A stretch of DNA of 48,643 bases from an uncultured Solibacteraceae bacterium (GCA_964517075.1 CAZFAT010000062.1:1-48643), one strand, 5' to 3'. Positions 4,681 to 26,621 are shown, counted from the stretch's first letter. Numbers and translations: made by a program. Notes: generated by a model not told the origin, from the letters alone.

Positions 4681-6137
4681 TCGCCCCCGTGTCGTTCCAC
4701 CGGCGCGCGGAAGAGGCGCTGGGCAACGCCCGGCTGCGCGGCGCGCTCCGAAGCGTCAGCTCGCGCGTGCTGGCCTCGCGGGCCGCGGCGCTCGAGGAAC
4801 TGCCGTCGGCCGATGGCTGGCGCGATCACGCCCGGCGCATCCGGGCCCACACACTGGCGCGCCTCGACACCTACCTCGACCAGTTCATCGTCGCGGTCGA
4901 GGCCCGGGGCGGCCACGTCCACTACGCGCGGACGGCCGACGATGCCGTGCGGTACGTGTGCGACCTCGCGCGGGCGCGCGGGTTGCGGCTGGCGGTGAAG
5001 TCGAAGTCGATGATCAGCGAGGAGATCCTGCTGAACCATCACCTCGAACAGGCGGGCGTCCGCGTCGTCGAAACCGATCTCGGCGAGTTCGTGGTCCAGC
5101 TCGCCGGCGAGCATCCGTCGCACATCGTGATGCCGATCATCCACAAGACGAAGGACGACGTGGCGGAGCTGTTCCGGCGCCAACTGGGCGCCACCGCCGA
5201 GGACCTGGCGGACGTCGAACGCATGACGCAGTTCGCGCGCCGCATCCTCCGCACCGAGTTCCTGCACGCCGACCTCGGCGTCAGCGGCGTCAATTTCGGC
5301 GTCGCCGAGACCGGCAGCCTCTGCATCGCGACGAACGAGGGCAACGGCCGGCTGGTGACATCGCTGCCGCGCGTGCACGTGGCGATGATGGGCATCGAGC
5401 GGCTGGTGCCGACGCTGCCCGACCTGGCCGTGATGCTGCAGGTGCTGGCCCGGAGCGCCACCGGCCAGCGCCTCACGGTCTACACGAACATCATCAACGG
5501 CCCGAGGCCCCGCGGCGAAGCCGACGGCCCGGAGGAACTGCACGTCGTCCTGCTCGACAACGGCCGATCGCGCGTCCTCGGATCCGAACTGGCGGAGATT
5601 CTGTACTGCATCCGGTGCGGCGCGTGCCTGACCGCGTGTCCCGTCTATCAGCAGATTGGCGGGCACGCCTACGGCAGCATCTACTCCGGCCCCGTCGGCG
5701 CCGTGCTGACGCCCGCGCTGAAGGGTGTCGCCGACGCGGTCGACCTGCCGCACGCGAGCAGCCTGTGCGGCGCGTGCCGCGAGGTCTGCCCCGTGCGGAT
5801 CGACATCCCGCGCATGCTGCTGGCGCTGCGCGCGGACCCGGCGTCCGTCACGGCCACGCCCCGCTGGATCCGCCTCGGCATGCGCCTGTACGCGTGGCTG
5901 GGCACACGGCCGAGGCTGTTCCGGACAGCCGGCCGCGTGGCGGCGGCCGCGACGAGACTCACGGCGCGCGACGGCTGGATCCGCCGGCTCCCCGGCCCCT
6001 TGCGCGGATGGACGACGACGCGGGACTTTCCCGCGATGGCAGGTCGGTCCTTTCAGCAGCGTTGGGCCGATCGGACACCCAGGCGGTCGGCGTCGGGCAT
6101 GGCGGAGCCGCCGACGGATGCCGGGCGGCGCGAATGA
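4677..6137 (+). CDS. lutB: L-lactate utilisation iron-sulfur protein LutB
   Basis: In-frame ATG at 4677 inside the 769-aa track ORF. The sequence [25 protein letters not shown]..., the ferredoxin motif CIRCGACLTACPVY and a second CGACREVCPV cluster match LutB/YkgF. The first 283 aa of the track ORF overlap lutA out of frame and are rejected. Confidence 0.85.
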   Translation: MIAPVSFHRRAEEALGNARLRGALRSVSSRVLASRAAALEELPSADGWRDHARRIRAHTLARLDTYLDQFIVAVEARGGHVHYARTADDAVRYVCDLARARGLRLAVKSKSMISEEILLNHHLEQAGVRVVETDLGEFVVQLAGEHPSHIVMPIIHKTKDDVAELFRRQLGATAEDLADVERMTQFARRILRTEFLHADLGVSGVNFGVAETGSLCIATNEGNGRLVTSLPRVHVAMMGIERLVPTLPDLAVMLQVLARSATGQRLTVYTNIINGPRPRGEADGPEELHVVLLDNGRSRVLGSELAEILYCIRCGACLTACPVYQQIGGHAYGSIYSGPVGAVLTPALKGVADAVDLPHASSLCGACREVCPVRIDIPRMLLALRADPASVTATPRWIRLGMRLYAWLGTRPRLFRTAGRVAAAATRLTARDGWIRRLPGPLRGWTTTRDFPAMAGRSFQQRWADRTPRRSASGMAEPPTDAGRRE

Positions 6138-6832
6138 CGGAAGACGAACGCGCGCGCGTGCGCCAGCTCCTGCGCGCGGCCGTCGCACAGGCGCGCCTGC
6201 CCGACGCGCTGTTCGAACATCCGGGCTCCGTGCCCGTGCCGGCCGGCACGACGGGCCACATGGTGGAACGCTTCTCGGGGCAGCTCACCGCCCTGGGCGG
6301 CGCCGTGCACGAAGCGGACACGCCGGAAGCGATCGCGCTGCTCGTCGCGTCCATGGCACGACGTGAGGCGGCCCGGCAGCCATCAACCGGCGCGCCTGGC
6401 GTGCTGCTGTGGAACGAGGACCGCCTGCCCGTGCCCGGACTGGGCACCGCCCTGAGAGGTCTCGGTCTGCGGATGCTGTTTCAGTCCGACACGGACCTCT
6501 CATCGACGGCACGGCGCGCCGAACTGGCCGGCGCGCTCGTGGGCATCACGAGCGCGGCGGCCGCTCTCGCGGAAACCGGATCGCTCGTGCTGGCCTCGGG
6601 CCCCGGTCGCGGCCGGCTGGCGTCGCTGCTGCCGCCGATTCACGTCGCGCTCCTCGAACGCCGGCTCATCGTCGAGTCCCTGCCGGACTTGATCGCCCAG
6701 CGACCGGAGGTCATGACGTCAGGAGCCAATGTGGTCTGCATCACGGGACCGAGCCGCACGGCCGACATCGAACACACGCTCACCCGGGGGGTGCATGGGC
6801 CAAGGGAAGTTCATGTGGTGCTCGTGAATTGA
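6134..6832 (+). CDS. lutC: L-lactate utilisation protein LutC (LUD domain)
   Basis: ATG at 6134 forms an ATGA overlap with the lutB stop. The C-terminal GANVVCITGPSRTADIEHTLTRGVHGPREVHVVLV is the LUD-domain signature. Gene order lutA-lutB-lutC. Confidence 0.8.
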   Translation: MTEDERARVRQLLRAAVAQARLPDALFEHPGSVPVPAGTTGHMVERFSGQLTALGGAVHEADTPEAIALLVASMARREAARQPSTGAPGVLLWNEDRLPVPGLGTALRGLGLRMLFQSDTDLSSTARRAELAGALVGITSAAAALAETGSLVLASGPGRGRLASLLPPIHVALLERRLIVESLPDLIAQRPEVMTSGANVVCITGPSRTADIEHTLTRGVHGPREVHVVLVN

Positions 6833-6843
6833 CGATTGAATCC

Positions 6844-9762
6844 ATGTCCAAGCCGCGCGTCGTCGTTCTCGCCGTAGTCCTCGGCGTGCTGGTCGCGCAG
6901 GCCGACGGCAGGTCCCAGGGGCTCCTCCGAAACCAGCTCGCCGGCATGGTCGACCAGACGGTCGCCGGCGTCCGATTCCGCACGCAGCCGGGCTTCGTCA
7001 TCGAGCGGGTGACGCCGGCCACCAGGATTGACAGCTACATCGTCATCACGTTCGACAGCCGTGGACGGCTGGTCGTGTCGAAGGAGAACGACACGCCGCG
7101 CATGCTGCTCGACCACGACGGCGACGGCGTCTACGAAGTCGACGCCAGCATCACGGAGCGGGTACGCAACTGCCAGGGCCTGTGGTTCGACGGTCCGACG
7201 CTGTACGGCGCCTGCGCGGAAGCGCCTGCGCCTGCGGCTCCTGGTGCCGCCGTGCCGCAGGGCCGCGGCAACCAGGCCACGGCGCCCGCCGGCATCTTCC
7301 GGATGACCGACACGAACGGCGACGACGTCACCGACACGTTCGAGATGCTGGCGCGGCTGGGGCGGATTCAGGAGCACGGGCCGCACGCCATTCGCCGCGC
7401 GCCCGACGGCGGCGTCATGGTGCTGGTCGGCAACAACGAGACCATCCCGGATGCGGCCCTGGATCTGACGTCGCCGGTCCTGCGGGACCGTGACGGCCAG
7501 TTCCTGCCCCCCCTGCCGGGTCAGGGCGCGAGCCGTCGCGAAGGCGCGCACAGCGCGCTCTTCGCGTGGCACGAAACGACCAGAAGGTTCGCGGTGTTCT
7601 CGGGCGGGAACCGCAACGCGTACGACTTCGCGTTCAACCTCTCGGGCGAGGCGTTTCTGTTCGACAGCGACAACGAAGCGGACATCGGCACGCCGTGGTA
7701 CCGCGAAGTGCGGACGGTCCATCAGATCCCGAATGGCAACTACGGCTACCGCAACAGCTCCGGCAAGTATCCGGCCTACTACCTGGACTCGCTGCCGCCC
7801 GTGCGCGACATCGGACGCGGATCGCCGGTCGGTGTCGAAACCTACTCGAGCTATACGTACCCACGCGAGTACTTCGAGACCCTGTTTGAAGCGGACTGGT
7901 CACGCGGCCGACTGCTCTTCACGACGCTCACGCCGAGTGGCGCGACGTTCCGCGCGAGGCCGGATCCCGCTGAGTTCGTTCATGGCGAACCGCTAAACAT
8001 CACGGACGTGGAAGTCGGGCCGGACGGTCTCCTCTATTTCACGACGGGAGGACGCACCACGGAGGGCGGTGTCTGGCGCGTCCGCTACACGGGACGCACG
8101 CCAGCCCGTCCCGAACCGACGGGCATCCTCGCCGTCGTCAGGCAGCCGCAGCCGTTGTCGAGCTGGGGCTGGCAGGCGATCGAAGACGTGAAGAGGGCGA
8201 TGACCGCCGCGAGCTTCGGCGCGCACCTGGAACGGCTCGCTCGGGACACGTCGGCCGACGGCATGGACCGGGCGCGCGCCGTCTACGAGCTGCAGCGGCA
8301 CGGCCCGGCGCCCTCGACCGCGCTCCTCCGCGCGCTCGTCAGCGACCGTGACGCCGCCGTCCGCGCGGCCGTGATGTACGTCGCTGGCGTTCAGGGCGAG
8401 ACCGCCGCGGCGGACGCGGCCGCCATTGCTGCTGCCGGACTGCGGGATCGCGATCCGGTGGTGAAGCGCCGCGCCGCCGAGGCGCTCGTTGGCCTGGGAC
8501 AGGCGCCGGATCGCCCGAGCCTCGCCCCCGTCGCCGACGTCCTCGCACTCCTGAACCATCCGGACCGGTTCGTCCGCTGGTCCGGACGGATTCTCGTCGA
8601 GCAGACACCGCGCGCGGACTGGACGAATCGCGTGCTGGCGGAGACGAACCCGCTCGGCGCGATCGACGGCATGCTGGCCTGGGTTCGCACGGCCGGAGCC
8701 GAGAGCCTCGATCCCGTCCTCGAGACGCAGCTCGCTCTGCTGGCGCGGACCGGCCTGTCAGTGACCAACCGGCTCCGGCTCTACCGCGCGTTCATGTACA
8801 CGACGACTGAGATACCTGGCGGCCTGTCAGCGGTGCATCGCCGCCGGCTCCACGACCTGATCGCGGGCCAGTTCCCGGCGACGGACGAACGGCTGAACCG
8901 CGAGCTTGCACTGATGCTGGCGTATGCCGGACAGACCGACGGCATCGACGAGGTACTCGCGGCGATGCCCGCGGGCAATGACAACCAGCCCCTGCAGCTC
9001 CACTATCTGTACGCACTGCGCACGGTTCGGCAGGGCTGGACGACGGCGCAGAAGACCGCGGTTGCCGATGTGCTCGGCCGGGGCAGCCGCTGGCGCGGCG
9101 GATCCCGGTTCGCGGACTTCCTGGCGGCGATCTACGACCCGCTGGCGGAACTGTACGCCACCGATGCCGAGCGGCAGATCCTGCACGCCCGCGCGCCCGA
9201 CTTCGCGCCGCTCGCGCCGCGCGAGGCCACGACCGTCCCGGCGGGCGGCCGCGGCCGGGCCGGCAACCCCATCGTGGCGCGCACGCAGGGCCGCGTCCTG
9301 AACAAGGGAGAGATCTTCGACGATGTGATCTACACGCCGCGCACGGAGCGCCCGGCCCCGGAGTCGGGCCGGACGATCTTCCAGGCGCACTGCGCGTCGT
9401 GCCATCGCATGGGCAGCGTCGGGACGGATCACGGCGTGGCAGCCTTGAATCTGACCTCGCTCGCGCCAGCCCTCGAGCGCCGTGCGCTGCTCGAGTCGAT
9501 CATGTTCCCGTCGCGGCGCGTGGGCACGGGCCAGGAGTCAACCGTGGTCGTCGCCAGCGACGGGCGGACCAGCACCGGCCTGGTCATCCGGGACGACGCC
9601 GGCGCGGTCACCCTGCTCACGGCTGACGGCACGACGGTCGACATCACGAAGCCGGTCCGTTCCCGGCGCCGGGTCGGGACGACGATCATGACCGACGCCC
9701 TCACAGATGCGATGACCCAGGCGGACCTGTCGGCCTTGCTGGCCTTCCTGCGGGCGCAATGA
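6844..9762 (+). CDS. secreted beta-propeller / HEAT-repeat / cytochrome c (CxxCH) protein (membrane-bound dehydrogenase-like heme-binding family)
   Basis: ATG at 6844 gives the signal peptide MSKPRVVVLAVVLGVLVAQA. The mid region carries HEAT-like repeats (DRDAAVRAAVMYVAG, RDRDPVVKRRAAEALVGLG). The C-terminus has the heme motif CASCH (FQAHCASCHRMGSVG). The upstream 145 aa of the track ORF overlap lutC and are rejected. Confidence 0.75.
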   Translation: MSKPRVVVLAVVLGVLVAQADGRSQGLLRNQLAGMVDQTVAGVRFRTQPGFVIERVTPATRIDSYIVITFDSRGRLVVSKENDTPRMLLDHDGDGVYEVDASITERVRNCQGLWFDGPTLYGACAEAPAPAAPGAAVPQGRGNQATAPAGIFRMTDTNGDDVTDTFEMLARLGRIQEHGPHAIRRAPDGGVMVLVGNNETIPDAALDLTSPVLRDRDGQFLPPLPGQGASRREGAHSALFAWHETTRRFAVFSGGNRNAYDFAFNLSGEAFLFDSDNEADIGTPWYREVRTVHQIPNGNYGYRNSSGKYPAYYLDSLPPVRDIGRGSPVGVETYSSYTYPREYFETLFEADWSRGRLLFTTLTPSGATFRARPDPAEFVHGEPLNITDVEVGPDGLLYFTTGGRTTEGGVWRVRYTGRTPARPEPTGILAVVRQPQPLSSWGWQAIEDVKRAMTAASFGAHLERLARDTSADGMDRARAVYELQRHGPAPSTALLRALVSDRDAAVRAAVMYVAGVQGETAAADAAAIAAAGLRDRDPVVKRRAAEALVGLGQAPDRPSLAPVADVLALLNHPDRFVRWSGRILVEQTPRADWTNRVLAETNPLGAIDGMLAWVRTAGAESLDPVLETQLALLARTGLSVTNRLRLYRAFMYTTTEIPGGLSAVHRRRLHDLIAGQFPATDERLNRELALMLAYAGQTDGIDEVLAAMPAGNDNQPLQLHYLYALRTVRQGWTTAQKTAVADVLGRGSRWRGGSRFADFLAAIYDPLAELYATDAERQILHARAPDFAPLAPREATTVPAGGRGRAGNPIVARTQGRVLNKGEIFDDVIYTPRTERPAPESGRTIFQAHCASCHRMGSVGTDHGVAALNLTSLAPALERRALLESIMFPSRRVGTGQESTVVVASDGRTSTGLVIRDDAGAVTLLTADGTTVDITKPVRSRRRVGTTIMTDALTDAMTQADLSALLAFLRAQ

Positions 9763-12774: not shown

Positions 12775-12804
12775 TTGTCAAATAGCAGGCCCGACCGATA
12801 TAAG
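12775..12804 (+). promoter_or_regulatory. candidate sigma70-type promoter for ilvD (TTGTCA-18 nt-TATAAG)
   Basis: TTGTCA at 12775-12780 and TATAAG at 12799-12804, inside the only AT-rich patch of the pheA/ilvD divergent intergenic region. Promoter consensus for this lineage is unknown, so confidence is low. Confidence 0.3.
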
Positions 12805-12839
12805 TGTCAGGTCGGGTGGCTGAGGAACACCCCGGAAGC

Positions 12840-14531
12840 ATGAGCGAACGACAACCTACTCCGCCGGCCCGAGGCTCGAACCGGTCCCGGCTGGTCGAGG
12901 GACCCCAGCGGGCGCCGGCGCGTGCCATGCTCAAGGCCGTCGGCTATACCGACCGGGATCTCGAGCGCCCCCTCATCGGCGTGGCGAACACCTGGATCGA
13001 GATCGGCCCTTGCAATTACCACCTCCGCGAGCTCGCCGGTCCCGTGCGTGAAGGCATCCGCGCGGCCGGGGGCACTCCCATGGAGTTCAACACGGTCTCG
13101 ATTTCCGACGGGATCACGATGGGCACCTCGGGCATGCGGATGTCGCTGGTCAGCCGCGAGCTGATTGCGGACTCCATCGAGATGGTCGTGGACGGCAACC
13201 AGCTCGACGGCGTCATTGCGCTCGTGGGGTGCGACAAGACCATTCCGGGGGCGGTCATGGCGCTGGCCCGCATCAACGTCCCGGGCCTCGTGCTGTACGG
13301 CGGGTCCATTGCGCCGGGCCGGTTCGCCGGGCACGACGTGACGATTCAGGACGTGTTCGAGGCGGTGGGCGCGCACGCGGCGGGCCGCATGACCGGCGTG
13401 GAGCTCACCGCGCTCGAGAATGTCGCGTGTCCGGGCGCCGGGGCGTGCGGCGGGCAGTTCACCGCCAACACGATGTCTGGTGTCTGCGAGTTCCTGGGCA
13501 TCTCGGCCATGGGCAGCAATAACGTGCCCGCGCGTGACGGCGCCAAGGCCGGCATCGCGCGCGCGGCCGGCGCCCTCGTCGTGGACCTCGTGAAGCGTGG
13601 GGTCAGACCGCGGCAGATCCTGACGCCGGCCGCATTCGAGAACGCCATCGCGTCGGTCGCGGCCACGGGCGGCTCGACGAATGCCGTCCTGCACCTGCTG
13701 GCCATCGCCCGCGAGGCGGGCGTCGCGCTGGACCTCGGCCTCTTCGATCGCATCAGCGCGTCGGTGCCCTGGCTGGCCGACCTCAAGCCCGCCGGCCGGT
13801 TCGTCGCGACGGACCTGTATCGCGCCGGCGGTACGGCTCTCGTCGCGCGGCGGCTCGCGGAGCACGGCATGCTGAACACGGACGCGGTCACCGTGACCGG
13901 AAAGACGATCGGCGAGGAAGCCGCGGCGGCCACGGAAGCCGCCGGGCAGCAGGTCGTCCGCCCGCTCGCCTCGCCCCTCTCGCCGACCGGGGGGCTGGTC
14001 ATCCTGCGCGGCAGCCTGGCGCCTGACGGCTGCGTCCTGAAGGTGGCCGGCCACACGCGGCACAGCCATCGCGGCCCGGCCCGGGTCTTCGACGGCGAGG
14101 AGGCTACGTTCGCGGCCGTTCAGACGGGACAGATCGTTCCGGGCGACGTCATCGTCATTCGCTACGAAGGCCCGCGGGGCGGCCCGGGCATGCGCGAAAT
14201 GCTCGGGGTCACGGGCGCCATCGTCGGCGCCGGCCTGGGCGAATCGGTCGCGCTCGTCACCGACGGCCGCTTCTCGGGCGCCACGCACGGGTTCATGGTC
14301 GGACATGTCGCGCCGGAAGCCGCCTCGGGCGGCCCGATCGCCGTCGTGCGGAATGGCGACATCGTGTCGATCGACGTCGAGGCGCGCCGGATTGATCTCG
14401 AGGTGCCCGCGGCCGAGCTGGCGTCGCGGCTGAAGGCCTGGTCGGCGCCCCCGCCGCGCGCGACCGGCGGTGTGCTCCCGAAGTACGCGAAGCTCGTGTC
14501 GTCGGCCTCCGAGGGGGCGGTTACGGGATAA
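12840..14531 (+). CDS. ilvD: dihydroxy-acid dehydratase
   Basis: [42 protein letters not shown] and TDGRFSG motifs. I prefer the ATG at 12840 over the GTG at 12804. Confidence 0.9.
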
Positions 14532-14538
14532 GGACGGA

Positions 14539-14666
14539 CATTGACGATTGGTTGATTGGGAGATTGAGGATTGGATTGACGATTGACTCATTGCCGATCG
14601 ATGCCGGTTTCAATCGTCAATCGCACAAATCCAATCCTCAATCACCGAATCAGCAAATCGTCAATG
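14539..14666. repeat. heptamer-periodic hairpin element B (GATTGNN / CAATCNN type), 128 nt
   Basis: The left arm 14539-14587 pairs with the right arm 14616-14666 (14539 with 14666 inward, about 40 Watson-Crick pairs, few mismatches, one U:G at 14552/14653). ATTG recurs every 7-8 nt. It lies 7 nt after the ilvD stop and 34 nt before the ilvB ATG. Confidence 0.85.
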
Positions 14667-14700
14667 AACCGTTCTTGACGGTGTCAGTGAGGAGTCATTT

Positions 14701-16410
14701 ATGCGTCTGACAGGTGCGGAAATTCTCTGGGACTGTCTGGTCCGCGAAGGGGTGACCGACGTGTTCGGCTATCCCGGCGGCGCGATTCTCCCGGCCTACG
14801 ACGCGATGCTGAAGTACCCGATCCGCCACGTGCTCGTACGCCACGAGCAGGGCGCGACGCACATGGCCGACGGCTACGCGCGCGCGAGCGGCCGCGTGGG
14901 CGTGGCCGTCGCCACGAGCGGGCCCGGCGCCACCAACATGGTCACCGGCATCGCCACCGCCATGATGGACTCCTCGCCGATCGTCTGCATCACCGGCCAG
15001 GTCGGCAGCCGGCTCATCGGGTCGGACGCGTTCCAGGAGACGGACATCACCGGCATCACGCTGCCGGTGACCAAGCACAACTACCTGGTGACGCGCGCGG
15101 ACGAAGTCGCGTCGCCAGTGCGCGAGGCCTTTCTCGTCGCGAAATCCGGTCGGCCCGGCCCGGTCCTGATCGACATCACCAAGGACGCCCAGCAGTCGTC
15201 GTGCGCCTTCGACTGGGACGCGGCCGCTCCGGACGACAGCGTGAACCGGAAATCGCCACCGATGAACGACGAGAACATGCGGCAGGCCATCGCGCTCATC
15301 GCGTCGGCCCGGCGACCGCTGATTCTGGCCGGCCACGGCATCCTCCTCGCCAACGCCACCGAGGATCTGCGCGCGTTCGTGACCGCGACCGGGATTCCGG
15401 TCGCGGTCACCCTCCTCGGCATCGGCTGTCTGCCCGCCTCGCATCCACTGAATCTGGGCATGATGGGCATGCACGGCGAGGCCTGGGTGAACACCGCCAT
15501 CCAGGAGGCCGACCTGCTCATCGCGCTCGGCATGCGCTTCGACGATCGGGTGACCGGCAACCTGAAGACCTACGCGCAGGAAGCCCGCAAGATTCACGTG
15601 GACATCGACCCGGCCGAGATCGGCAAGAACGTCCCGACCGACGTCGGCATCGTCGCCGACGTCCGCGACGCCCTGCGGGCGTGGGGGCCGGCGCTCGAGC
15701 GGCTGGACGTGTCCGACTGGGTGGCCCGCATCGACGCGTTGAAGGGCGATTCGGCCGTGCGCGATATCCAGAACCTGCCCGATGACGGACATCTGTACGC
15801 GGCCCACGTGATCAACGACCTCTGGCGCGCGACGCACGGTCAGGCCGTGGTCGTGACCGACGTCGGCCAGCATCAGATGTGGGAAGCGCAGTACTACCAC
15901 CACGAGCTGCCGCGAACGCTGATTACGTCGGGCGGGCTCGGCACGATGGGCTTCGCGCTTCCGGCCGCCATCGGCGCCAAGATGGCCTGCCCCGATGCCG
16001 AGGTCTGGGCGATTGTCGGCGACGGCGGTTTCCAGATGACGATGTGCGAGCTGGCGACGATTCAGCAGGAGCGGCTGAAGGTCAATATCGCGATCATCAA
16101 CAACGGCTATCTCGGCATGGTGCGCCAGTGGCAGGAGTTCTTCTACGAGCGCCGCTACGCCGCCACGCCGCTCTTGAGCCCCGACTTCGTCAAACTCGCG
16201 GGGGCCTACGGCATCGAGTCGTGCGGCGTGACCTCGCGCAAGGACGTGATCCCGGCCGTCGAGTCGGCGCGCGCCCACACCGGCGCGGTGCTGCTGGACT
16301 TCAAGGTCGAGCAGGAAGACTCGGTGTTCCCGATGGTGCCGGCCGGCGCGGATCTCCACAAGATGATCCGTCGCCCGACGCCGCTCGCGGAGACGGGCGC
16401 GGACCGGTAG
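14701..16410 (+). CDS. ilvB: acetolactate synthase, large (catalytic) subunit
   Basis: MRLTGAEILWDCLVREGVTDVFGYPGGAILP..., the TPP motif GDGGFQMTMCELATI and NNGYLGMVRQWQ. GAGGAG SD upstream. Confidence 0.92.
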   Translation: MRLTGAEILWDCLVREGVTDVFGYPGGAILPAYDAMLKYPIRHVLVRHEQGATHMADGYARASGRVGVAVATSGPGATNMVTGIATAMMDSSPIVCITGQVGSRLIGSDAFQETDITGITLPVTKHNYLVTRADEVASPVREAFLVAKSGRPGPVLIDITKDAQQSSCAFDWDAAAPDDSVNRKSPPMNDENMRQAIALIASARRPLILAGHGILLANATEDLRAFVTATGIPVAVTLLGIGCLPASHPLNLGMMGMHGEAWVNTAIQEADLLIALGMRFDDRVTGNLKTYAQEARKIHVDIDPAEIGKNVPTDVGIVADVRDALRAWGPALERLDVSDWVARIDALKGDSAVRDIQNLPDDGHLYAAHVINDLWRATHGQAVVVTDVGQHQMWEAQYYHHELPRTLITSGGLGTMGFALPAAIGAKMACPDAEVWAIVGDGGFQMTMCELATIQQERLKVNIAIINNGYLGMVRQWQEFFYERRYAATPLLSPDFVKLAGAYGIESCGVTSRKDVIPAVESARAHTGAVLLDFKVEQEDSVFPMVPAGADLHKMIRRPTPLAETGADR

Positions 16411-18098: not shown

Positions 18099-18106
18099 GT
18101 CGCCGC

Positions 18107-18168
18107 GAGTTCAGTTCGGGGGTCTCGACAGCTACCGGAGACCGAAGACCGGCGACCGAAAACCGCCT
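18107..18168. repeat. heptamer-periodic element C (short hairpin plus GACCGAA array)
   Basis: GGTCTC (18121-18126) pairs with GAGACC (18138-18143). An exact 7-nt array follows: GACCGAA GACCGGC GACCGAA AACCGCC (18141-18168), then a pyrimidine tract. It starts 9 nt after the ilvC stop. Confidence 0.6.
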
Positions 18169-19421: not shown

Positions 19422-19429
19422 CCATCTGC

Positions 19430-19645
19430 CTATCGGCTATTGGCTATTGGCTATCGCGATTGAGTTATTGGGCTATTGAACGGTTATTGGGCTATTGATT
19501 GGGTTATTGGAGGATTGGGTTATTGGACAATTTGGCTATTGATGGGCGAGTCGCTGATTCGCGACTGCGCGCTTCAGCGACTACCAATAACCCGATCAAT
19601 AGCCCAATAACTCAATCGCGATAGCCAATAACCAATAGCCGATAG
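19430..19645. repeat. heptamer-periodic hairpin element D (GGCTATT / AATAGCC type), 216 nt with a 50-bp outer stem
   Basis: 19430-19479 is the reverse complement of 19596-19645 with a single mismatch (C19444/A19631). TTATTGG-type units recur every 7 nt. A nested GC-rich hairpin spans 19549-19582. It fills the whole gap between the convergent stops. Confidence 0.9.
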
Positions 19646-20101
19646 CTAGATGCGACCGATAGCCGCCATCAGTTCCTCGACATCCGGCTGTTCGGGGATG
19701 TCATACAGCCGGATCCATTTGATGGTCCCTTCCTTGTCTATGACAAAGATGGCTCTTTCCGCGATGCCGTCGTCGCGCATCACTCCGTAGCTCGCGGCGG
19801 CCTGGCCGCGGGGGTGGAAGTCGCTCAGCAGATCGAACGAGATGCCGCCGAGGGCGTCGGCCCAGGCGCGCTTCGCGGGTGAGGCGTCGGTGCTGATCGC
19901 CAGCACGTGCGTGTCCAGCGCCGCGAACCGGGGCTGCTCGCGCTCGTACGTCTGCATCTGCACCGCACAGACCGGCGTGAACGCCAGCACGTGAAACGCC
20001 AGCACTACCGTCTTCTTCCCACGGAAGTCCGTGAGGCGGACCGTGTGTCCCTGGTGGCTGAGCAGCGCAAAGTCAGGAGCGGCCGTTCCGACCGGCAGCA
20101 T
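19646..20101 (-). CDS. peroxiredoxin (AhpC/TSA family)
   Basis: 151 aa from the internal ATG at 20101 ([18 protein letters not shown]...[18 protein letters not shown]). The peroxidatic Cys sits in FTPVC. The longer track ORF (to 20353) runs into the aquaporin gene and is rejected. Confidence 0.85.
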
Positions 20102-26533: not shown

Positions 26534-26539
26534 TTCCGC

Positions 26540-26610
26540 CAATCGTCAATCGACCAATCATCAATCGTCAATTCAAATCATCAATGAATCGATCGCCAAT
26601 CATCAATTCC
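26540..26610 (+). repeat. one-armed heptamer array E (CAATCNN units), homologous to the right arm of element B
   Basis: CAAT recurs at 26540, 26547, 26555, 26562, 26569, 26582, 26597 and 26604. It shares the exact 13-mer CAATCGTCAATCG with 14611-14623 and a near-identical tail (AAATCATCAATGAA vs AAATCGTCAATGAA). No complementary arm is present. It lies between the clpA stop and the grpE start. Confidence 0.75.
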
Positions 26611-26621
26611 GTTTGCCTTCC

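Follow-up and report, generated by a model that had tools for sequence, protein, structure and literature searches.

Is the 128-nt hairpin between ilvD and ilvB in an uncultured Solibacteraceae bacterium a regulatory device of this branched-chain amino acid operon, or a repeat of wider distribution that has settled in it? The window analysed in the present study is the whole stretch of 48,643 nt (GCA_964517075.1 CAZFAT010000062.1:1-48643), which makes up contig C62 of a genome (G000) of 4.30 Mb in 424 contigs, with a GC content of 68.7% and a completeness of 97%; the contigs of this fragmented assembly are probably broken by repeats. An earlier, sequence-only reading of the junction implied a device specific to the locus, which would uncouple or differentially stabilise ilvD and ilvBNC-serA and would act through the sense RNA.

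Structure and position of the hairpin

The features of the junction, with the basis of each assignment where one applies, are as follows.

12804..14531, + strand: ilvD (dihydroxy-acid dehydratase), start maybe at 12927 (Pfam ILVD_EDD_N and ILV_EDD_C; ORF lists)
14529..14538, + strand: 5' flank forming the stem base, overlapping the ilvD TAA stop at 14529-14531 (MFE pair list)
14539..14666, no strand assigned: copied unit, ORF-less hairpin of the ATTGAYG (7-nt) family, with ends CATTGACGAT ... ATCGTCAATG (paralogue alignment and fold)
14539..14593, + strand: left arm, eight ATTG-containing units with spacings of 5-8 nt
14594..14610, no strand assigned: apical region with a small sub-hairpin (centre GATCGATG), akin to the loop in the copy on contig C51
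14611..14666, + strand: right arm, complementary CAAT units
14667..14677, + strand: 3' flank pairing with 14529-14538 (MFE pair list)
14689..14694, + strand: GAGGAG, Shine-Dalgarno-like sequence of ilvB, outside the hairpin (read from the sequence)
14701..16410, + strand: ilvB, acetolactate synthase large subunit (Pfam TPP_enzyme_N, M and C domains)

Pfam searches revealed IlvN, IlvC and a SerA-like 2-hydroxyacid dehydrogenase downstream of ilvB, in agreement with the gene order given earlier. The sequence-level statements about the hairpin at 14539-14666 hold in full, both in the fold and in the inverted-repeat search: the minimum free energy structure of 14525-14680 contains 62 pairs, those within the hairpin being 50 Watson-Crick and three G.U pairs, and the search found arms at 14539-14577 and 14628-14666 (39 nt, 90% complementary). 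ATTG recurs at spacings of 7, 8, 8, 7, 5, 7 and 8 nt, and the GC content is 44.5% vs 69% in the 2-kb flanks. The distances of 7 nt from the end of the ilvD TAA stop (14531) to the hairpin and of 34 nt from the hairpin to the ilvB ATG (14701) are exact. The stem also grows outward, with 14529-14538 pairing with 14667-14677, so that its base reaches the ilvD stop codon and the whole stem measures approximately 60 bp; the loop of about 17-28 nt contains no ORF. Among the 1616 intergenic regions of the genome that were surveyed, this hairpin ranks fifth by length.

The folding energies, which had been suggested as a check, are -79.8 kcal/mol for the plus-strand RNA (shuffles, mean -38; z = -11.3; 0 of 200 shuffles as good) and -72.5 kcal/mol for the minus-strand RNA (z = -9.4). 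The wobble U14552:G14653, earlier taken to point to the sense RNA, is indeed the sole wobble of the main stem, but carries no weight alone (transition mismatches in this copy, two favouring the sense and one the antisense strand). The TTGACG hexamer at 14675-14680 lacks a -10 partner, as had been noticed, and the consensus scan of 14300-14900 found no sigma-70-like promoter and no terminator-like sites.

Rfam searches revealed nothing at gathering score in the window, and the hairpin itself gave only sub-threshold hits resembling microRNA precursors. An intrinsic terminator was rejected, as the combination of a G+C-rich stem and a U tract is not found (the tail is UGACGGUGUCAG), and so was an amino-acid-responsive leader (attenuator, T-box or riboswitch), in view of the lack of a match to curated RNA families and of conservation at the orthologous site. 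No leader peptide was found at the ilvD-ilvB junction.

Dispersed ATTG families in the genome

A search of the genome with the 146-nt hairpin region as the query returned 71 matches, and runs of ATTG/CAAT define 116 arms vs approximately six expected by chance. The arms split into two related families with units ATTGAYG (7 nt) and ATTGGGYT (8 nt), together amounting to about 100 copies, and in both families the arms occur either as inverted doublets, whose outer termini always face outward, or as solo arms. At the outer end of each arm, the 7-nt family has a conserved terminus that spans about 45 nt and is not itself a repeat (cTGMATTGAYGATyTgyyGATCGnrTCATTGAyGATTGA; 50 strong termini); a variable run of ATTGAYG heptamers follows. 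The 8-nt family has the outer terminus GCATCTGGCTATCGGCTATTGGYTATTGGCTATCGCGATTGGG and 59 strong termini, counted before the removal of four internal pseudo-termini (about 55-60 overall). The ilvD-ilvB copy is a diverged member of the 7-nt family. Its closest paralogue lies at G000:C51:9742-9861, where both arms and the loop align; the similarity starts at CATTGACGAT and stops at ATCGTCAATG, which corresponds exactly to 14539-14666, and the flanks are unrelated. The hairpin is, thus, one of about 100 dispersed copies, absent or replaced in relatives (see below), and the implied locus-specific regulatory device is not supported.

Two further members are found in the window.

19422..19653, no strand assigned: 8-nt ATTGGGYT doublet between convergent genes (terminus profile 61.0 and 58.3 bits; inverted repeat)
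26538..26613, - strand: solo arm of the 7-nt family that reads as CAAT units on the + strand and stops 9-20 nt short of the start of grpE

The second one forms the grpE leader, which is G-poor and lies in the stop-free CAAT orientation, and no Shine-Dalgarno sequence is visible before the called start; C/A-rich unstructured leaders of this type could affect translation or Rho loading. Arrays in the ATTG orientation contain TGA in all three frames and those in the CAAT orientation contain no stop codons, and for the latter reason ORF callers run into the arms. The terminus of the 8-mer family (e.g., 19646-19653) contains CAT/ATG and sometimes TAG, and automated gene calls can start or end inside the elements; the minus-strand gene 19646-20101 has its TAG stop within such a terminus. 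An apparent start codon in the 8-mer terminus (GCATCTGG on the other strand) was dismissed as an artefact, the 8 of 24 cases being the chance in-frame rate.

An arm resembles its own partner no more than it does the best-matching arm of another element (own partner closer in 0/16 elements of the 7-mer family and 2/10 of the 8-mer family), and since the similarity within elements does not exceed that between elements, there is no clear compensatory co-evolution. A MITE was also considered and rejected: neither the approximately 100 termini nor the C62/C51 pair show a target duplication, and an insertion sequence that could be the parent was not found, the genes between distant inverted arms being VWA-domain and other ordinary genes and not transposases. 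No transposase, RAYT or target duplication accompanies the 7-nt and 8-nt families at the genomic termini and neighbouring genes checked. The VWA-domain genes are two paralogues (C15:4572-6821 and C51:3610-5852; about 610-690 aa) bracketed by inverted arms of the 7-nt family approximately 2.15 kb apart; this arrangement may be a coincidence, or the genes may belong to a larger unit carried between the arms.

The ATTGAYG family is one of several heptamer/octamer hairpin families in this acidobacterial lineage. The intergenic tandem arrays of the genome number 159 at period 7, 30-40 at periods 3-6, 66 at period 8 and 22 at period 9, and coding tandem arrays track multiples of three; further unit types, e.g., GGTTCTC, AGAAGTT, GAGGTTA and GAGCTAT, build similar hairpins. 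The elements occupy a distinct niche, based on crude codon-model gene calls: most outer termini are situated 0-14 nt from a stop codon, and convergent gaps are enriched in elements, which fall there in 32% of cases compared with 15% for gaps in general (p = 5e-5). Divergent gaps hold 9 of 98, below the 15% expected, a shortfall that is not significant (p = 0.11).

The distribution of the 7-nt family is patchy: 7 of the 24 genomes from this bacterial family have it, and it is also found in two other families of the order. A strict two-unit pattern was matched by 3 of 301 genomes across the phylum, but is too stringent to gauge the distribution. The core motif of the family, GATCGNNTCATTGAYGATTGA, is also multi-copy in a Phycisphaerae MAG, in compact 78-nt hairpins, and occurs in other Planctomycetota. 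CATTGAYGAT is found twice per arm and recurs across phyla with variable loops. In the Phycisphaerae MAG (JANMES01; L074-L112), about 25 copies follow the same 78-nt plan of AATTGAATCATTGACGATCGGGTCATTGACGATTGA, loop and complement, with conserved arms and variable loops; their terminal module is also that of the 7-nt family of the acidobacterial genomes, which belong to another phylum. No relevant publication on the motif of the 7-nt family was found in the searchable literature.

The ilvD-ilvB junction in related genomes

The junction was compared in relatives that keep ilvD adjacent to ilvB, a set of related genomes and hence not of independent samples. It was found in two states. In the first, represented by half of the relatives, it is tight and translationally coupled, with a 3-18 nt spacer or a GTGA stop/start overlap. 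In the second it holds a different short-repeat hairpin or array, with units such as CGTAAGT, AGAAGTT, GAACTTC, GTCAGGG and CACATCAC; the junction repeats of genomes G007 and G010 are multi-copy families too, matching 75 and 113 sites, respectively, of the genome concerned. The GTGA overlap of ilvD and ilvB in genomes G004 and G013 (L050, L051) shows the ancestral translational coupling, which the hairpin in the window interrupts. A metagenome scan for the junction found relatives of at most 77% identity, mostly without ilvB downstream.

A tree built from the flanking proteins places all five of the family's occupied junctions in a single clade of seven genomes (98/98 support), the sister group of which has overlapping ilvD and ilvB genes. 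This pattern fits a spacer that opened once, in an ancestor, and in which one resident repeat family has since replaced another; a permissive site that received insertions repeatedly is a possible alternative. A repeat hairpin of some kind occupies the ilvD-ilvB junction in 5 of 10 genomes of the family vs 1 of 11 for the junction after ilvC (p = 0.06). At the latter junction, a heptamer hairpin is present in 3 of 26 genomes (G000, G031 and G036), and in the window a hairpin of the GGTCTCG / GAGACCG / GAAAACCG type lies at 18099-18168, directly 3' of the ilvC stop.

Sense-strand bias of periodic hairpins

Hairpins located between co-directional genes permit a strand test, as a transition mismatch in the stem is G.U on one strand and A.C on the other. 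The numbers of hairpins more stable as sense vs antisense RNA, and of G.U pairs in the sense vs antisense RNA, are listed below.

G000, periodic hairpins: 17 vs 4 (p = 0.007); G.U 67 vs 44
G000, non-periodic hairpins (control): 40 vs 36; G.U 165 vs 167
G007 and G010, own families: 9 vs 3; G.U 26 vs 17
Periodic hairpins combined: 26 vs 7 (p = 0.0013); G.U 93 vs 61 (p = 0.012)

The replicate of G007 and G010 taken alone is not significant. The role of the sense RNA, which the earlier reading had derived from a single uninformative wobble, gains indirect support from the whole class, where 26 of 33 periodic hairpins fold better on the sense strand. The bias fits selection on the transcript and suggests that the stems act as RNA; it could instead stem from transcription-associated C-to-T mutation of the non-template strand.

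PF05635 genes between inverted heptamer arrays

Inverted arrays enclose all three PF05635/TIGR02436 (four-helix-bundle protein) genes of the genome, and the unit family of the arrays differs from gene to gene.

G000:C126:22727-23621: gene in an 8-mer doublet (ATTGGGYT), arms 85/88 identical with consensus termini, the best-matched 8-mer doublet
G000:C264:~5245-5545: gene in GGTTTTC/GAAAACC arrays
G000:C202:~6560-7105: gene in GGTGAAG/AGGTCAA arrays (L273)

PF05635 genes occur in 23 of the 24 genomes of the bacterial family. Flanking inverted repeats with a score of at least 20 are found at 19 of 29 PF05635 loci vs 0 of 200 size-matched control genes, and flanking arms at 29 of 34 loci vs 2 of 68 displaced-window controls in the same loci (p = 5e-18). 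The period of the arms around these genes is 7 in 19 cases, 8 in five, 9 in four and 12 in one. Arms of the ATTG type are among them: in G009 the gene lies amid long ATTGAxG/GATTGGG arrays, the right end of which resembles the family terminus by eye; in G002 an ATTG-type array abuts the ATG of the gene; and in G024 a terminus of the 7-nt family (profile E = 1.8e-10) is located about 65 nt from a degraded gene copy. The single PF05635 gene of the Phycisphaerae MAG has a GGGGCAAG array on one side and a CTTGCCCC array on the other.

The layout extends to cyanobacteria, Chloroflexota and Treponema. Annotated plasmids (L288-L295 among them) of Nostoc punctiforme, Planktothrix, Gloeocapsa, Dolichospermum, Anabaena cylindrica, Chlorohelix and Treponema carry armed four-helix-bundle genes, which are wedged in operons and whose inverted heptamer arrays often touch the start and stop codons. 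Insertion sites in defence operons (L288-L295) include DISARM drmD|MmeI, cas2|cas1, helicase|methylase and DUF1156|HEPN, and such insertions may be the cause of the CRISPR- or defence-associated scoring of this family.

No intact PF05635 gene was found in a copy of the 7-mer family in this genome (424 contigs, 97% complete). The arm families outnumber the three PF05635 genes, and any dependence of gene-less arms on the PF05635 protein in trans is, therefore, hypothetical. No RVT_1 reverse transcriptase gene was found in the genome either, and mobility of the retro type, in the style of Avd and a reverse transcriptase, is thus unsupported here. The literature search found no paper tying the PF05635 gene family to intergenic arrays.

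Origin and probable effect of the ilvD-ilvB hairpin

The preferred reading, to which we assign a probability of roughly 0.6, is that the ilvD-ilvB hairpin is a gene-less copy of an element of the type of the intervening sequences (IVSs) of rRNA, tolerated after the stop codon, where probable cutting by RNase III or a block to exonucleases would uncouple ilvD from ilvBNC; its tie to the gene-carrying form is one of family resemblance and not of direct descent. The element lies in what was ancestrally a tight, translationally coupled junction and takes up the only position tolerated there: it follows the ilvD stop directly and spares GAGGAG, the ribosome-binding site of ilvB further downstream. 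On this proposal, cotranscription with the operon would yield the stem of about 60 bp that starts at the stop codon; this stem would either be cleaved by RNase III, like those of IVSs, or act as a barrier to 3'-5' exonucleases, an effect known from REP elements. In the gene-carrying relatives, the PF05635/TIGR02436 gene occupies the loop, in the same design as in ORF-bearing IVSs of 23S rRNA. The predicted outcome is a separation of ilvD from ilvBNC physically, in stability and in translation, with no sensing of amino acids by the element.

RNase III is encoded in the genome, and a near-perfect stem of about 60 bp within an mRNA is very unlikely to evade this enzyme. By analogy with the related IVS stems, which RNase III cuts, cleavage or stabilisation probably takes place at the ilvD-ilvB stem, and to this extent the uncoupling or differential stabilisation proposed earlier for ilvD and ilvBNC is retained.

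Among the alternatives, the one that survives best, though we consider it unlikely, is a neutral selfish DNA repeat, which would spread or expand as DNA (through slippage, template switching or some route of transposition), would persist only in harmless sites and would fold as RNA with no effect on ilv. The dispersed copies with variable unit numbers are compatible with this, as are the solo arms, which are incapable of forming hairpins and show no bias of orientation in tandem gaps (19 vs 16), the patchy distribution (7/24) and the orthologous junctions, which are often empty. Selfish spread alone leaves aside the preferentially greater stability of the sense RNA among the hairpin copies, and it would require a stem of this length to escape an encoded RNase III, which is improbable given the general knowledge of the substrates of this enzyme.

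It is more doubtful that the heptamers are operator-like DNA sites, candidates for binding by a global regulator, a nucleoid protein or the four-helix-bundle protein. Such arrays would explain the conservation of CATTGAYGAT, twice per arm and across phyla, and the PF05635 genes abutting arrays, and the paired arrays of Geobacter were annotated as global regulator sites (PMC2700814). The copies, however, are located at the 3' ends of genes and in convergent gaps, with fewer at divergent promoters (9/98 vs 15%, non-significant), and many unrelated unit sequences share one architecture in a single genome.

A dedicated cis-regulator of ilv (an attenuator, a terminator or a processing site for the differential expression of ilvD vs ilvBNC) is less probable still. 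It is suggested by the position inside a biosynthetic operon and by the higher occupancy of this junction compared to that after ilvC (5/10 vs 1/11, p = 0.06), but the elements occupying the junction belong to unrelated genome-wide families, half of the relatives manage with tight or overlapping junctions, and neither an Rfam match nor a leader peptide, a U-tract terminator or a promoter consensus was found.

A REPIN, i.e., a REP doublet mobilised by a RAYT (Y1 transposase), is already largely refuted and scarcely credible: the inverted intergenic doublets and decayed singlets, which lack target duplication, and the presence of a Y1_Tnp gene in the genome would agree with it, but the sole Y1_Tnp gene over the threshold (RAYT-like, L029, G000:C360:41830-42364) adjoins REPs of a different, classical GGCCGACCTTCAGGTCGGCC type, the Y1 genes of the motif-rich Phycisphaerae MAG have no ATTGACG hairpins nearby, and the arms are heptamer arrays of 50-60 nt starting with CATTGA and not GTAG- or CGTC-tagged palindromes of 20-40 nt. 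GTAG-tagged REP hairpins are dispersed genome-wide, which indicates a separate REP system existing beside the heptamer hairpins.

The reading as an IVS-type copy removes the tempting but mistaken interpretation of the hairpin as a branched-chain amino acid regulator and replaces it with an insertion-type repeat that split a formerly coupled junction; any effect on ilv expression would then be a by-product. More broadly, and only tentatively, ORF-less heptamer hairpins, including the cyanobacterial STRR and the arrays of Xanthomonas and Geobacter, might be non-autonomous derivatives of one class of elements. The complete form of this class would carry an Avd-like PF05635 gene flanked by inverted heptamer arrays, on the pattern of the IVSs of 23S rRNA, the protein would recognise or maintain its own unit arrays, the active family would overwrite the residents of fixed spacers, and the stems would serve as RNase III sites splitting operon transcripts. 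To our knowledge, two puzzles have stood since the 1990s: why heptamer repeats are in excess in the intergenic DNA of bacteria, and what the ORF of rRNA IVSs is for. The present genome is a compact system for such questions, as it combines three elements that carry a gene, each with its own arm family, and about 100 gene-less hairpins sharing those arm types. Two points become testable in it: binding of the four-helix-bundle protein to the heptamers of its own arms, and cleavage of the stems in mRNAs by RNase III.

Comparison with known systems

The elements share with MITEs a small size, non-coding nature, terminal inverted repeats, multiple copies and intergenic location; unlike MITEs, they have neither a target-site duplication nor a transposase parent, and their interior consists of variable-number tandem repeats. 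With the REP/REPIN-RAYT system (Bertels and Rainey 2011, PMC3116915), they have in common many intergenic doublets and singlets, the lack of target duplication and likely effects on mRNA 3' ends, but there is no association with a RAYT, and the arms are tandem heptamers and not a single short palindrome.

Closer counterparts are found among heptamer and octamer arrays. Xanthomonas contains GGGAATC arrays in 70-75 convergent pairs, near stop codons and mostly transcribed (Rehm et al. 2015, PMC4692102), and Geobacter metallireducens contains paired arrays of octa- and heptanucleotides, in 48, 47 and 16 copies, read as sites of global regulators (Aklujkar et al. 2009, PMC2700814); neither paper ties the arrays to a gene family. 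Common to these systems and to the families described here are many intergenic copies of tandem 7-8-nt units in variable number, frequently arranged as convergent opposite-strand pairs capable of forming stem-loops and situated about 50 nt or less from stop codons. The arrays of Xanthomonas and Geobacter are under-represented between divergent genes, as are the families described here, with a shortfall that is non-significant (p = 0.11). Unlike the Xanthomonas/Nostoc subclass, the ATTGAYG/CAATCRT units have no G runs, are not quadruplex-forming and are A+T-rich in a genome of 69% GC. The conserved outer terminus (about 45 nt, not a repeat) and the occurrence of the core motif in Planctomycetota also distinguish the 7-nt family from the arrays of Xanthomonas and Geobacter.

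The IVS of the 23S rRNA of Coxiella burnetii has a 28-bp stem of terminal inverted repeats with an S23p (PF05635) ORF in the loop (Warrier et al. 2016, PMC4990558), PF05635 being regarded as Avd-like (PMC10053308). Two or three tandem GACAGAT heptamers, depending on the strain, precede the ORF immediately, and it is at the first of these that RNase III cleaves the stem (PMC4990558). The ilvD-ilvB copy differs from this IVS in lying between protein genes and not in helix 25 or 45 of 23S rRNA, in having no ORF and in arms that are much longer arrays. Common to both are a stem of terminal inverted repeats containing tandem heptamers, a PF05635 ORF in the loop, although here in the gene-carrying relatives (G009, G002 and the degraded copy of G024, and the sister 8-mer element on C126), and, by analogy, RNase III as the expected processing enzyme.
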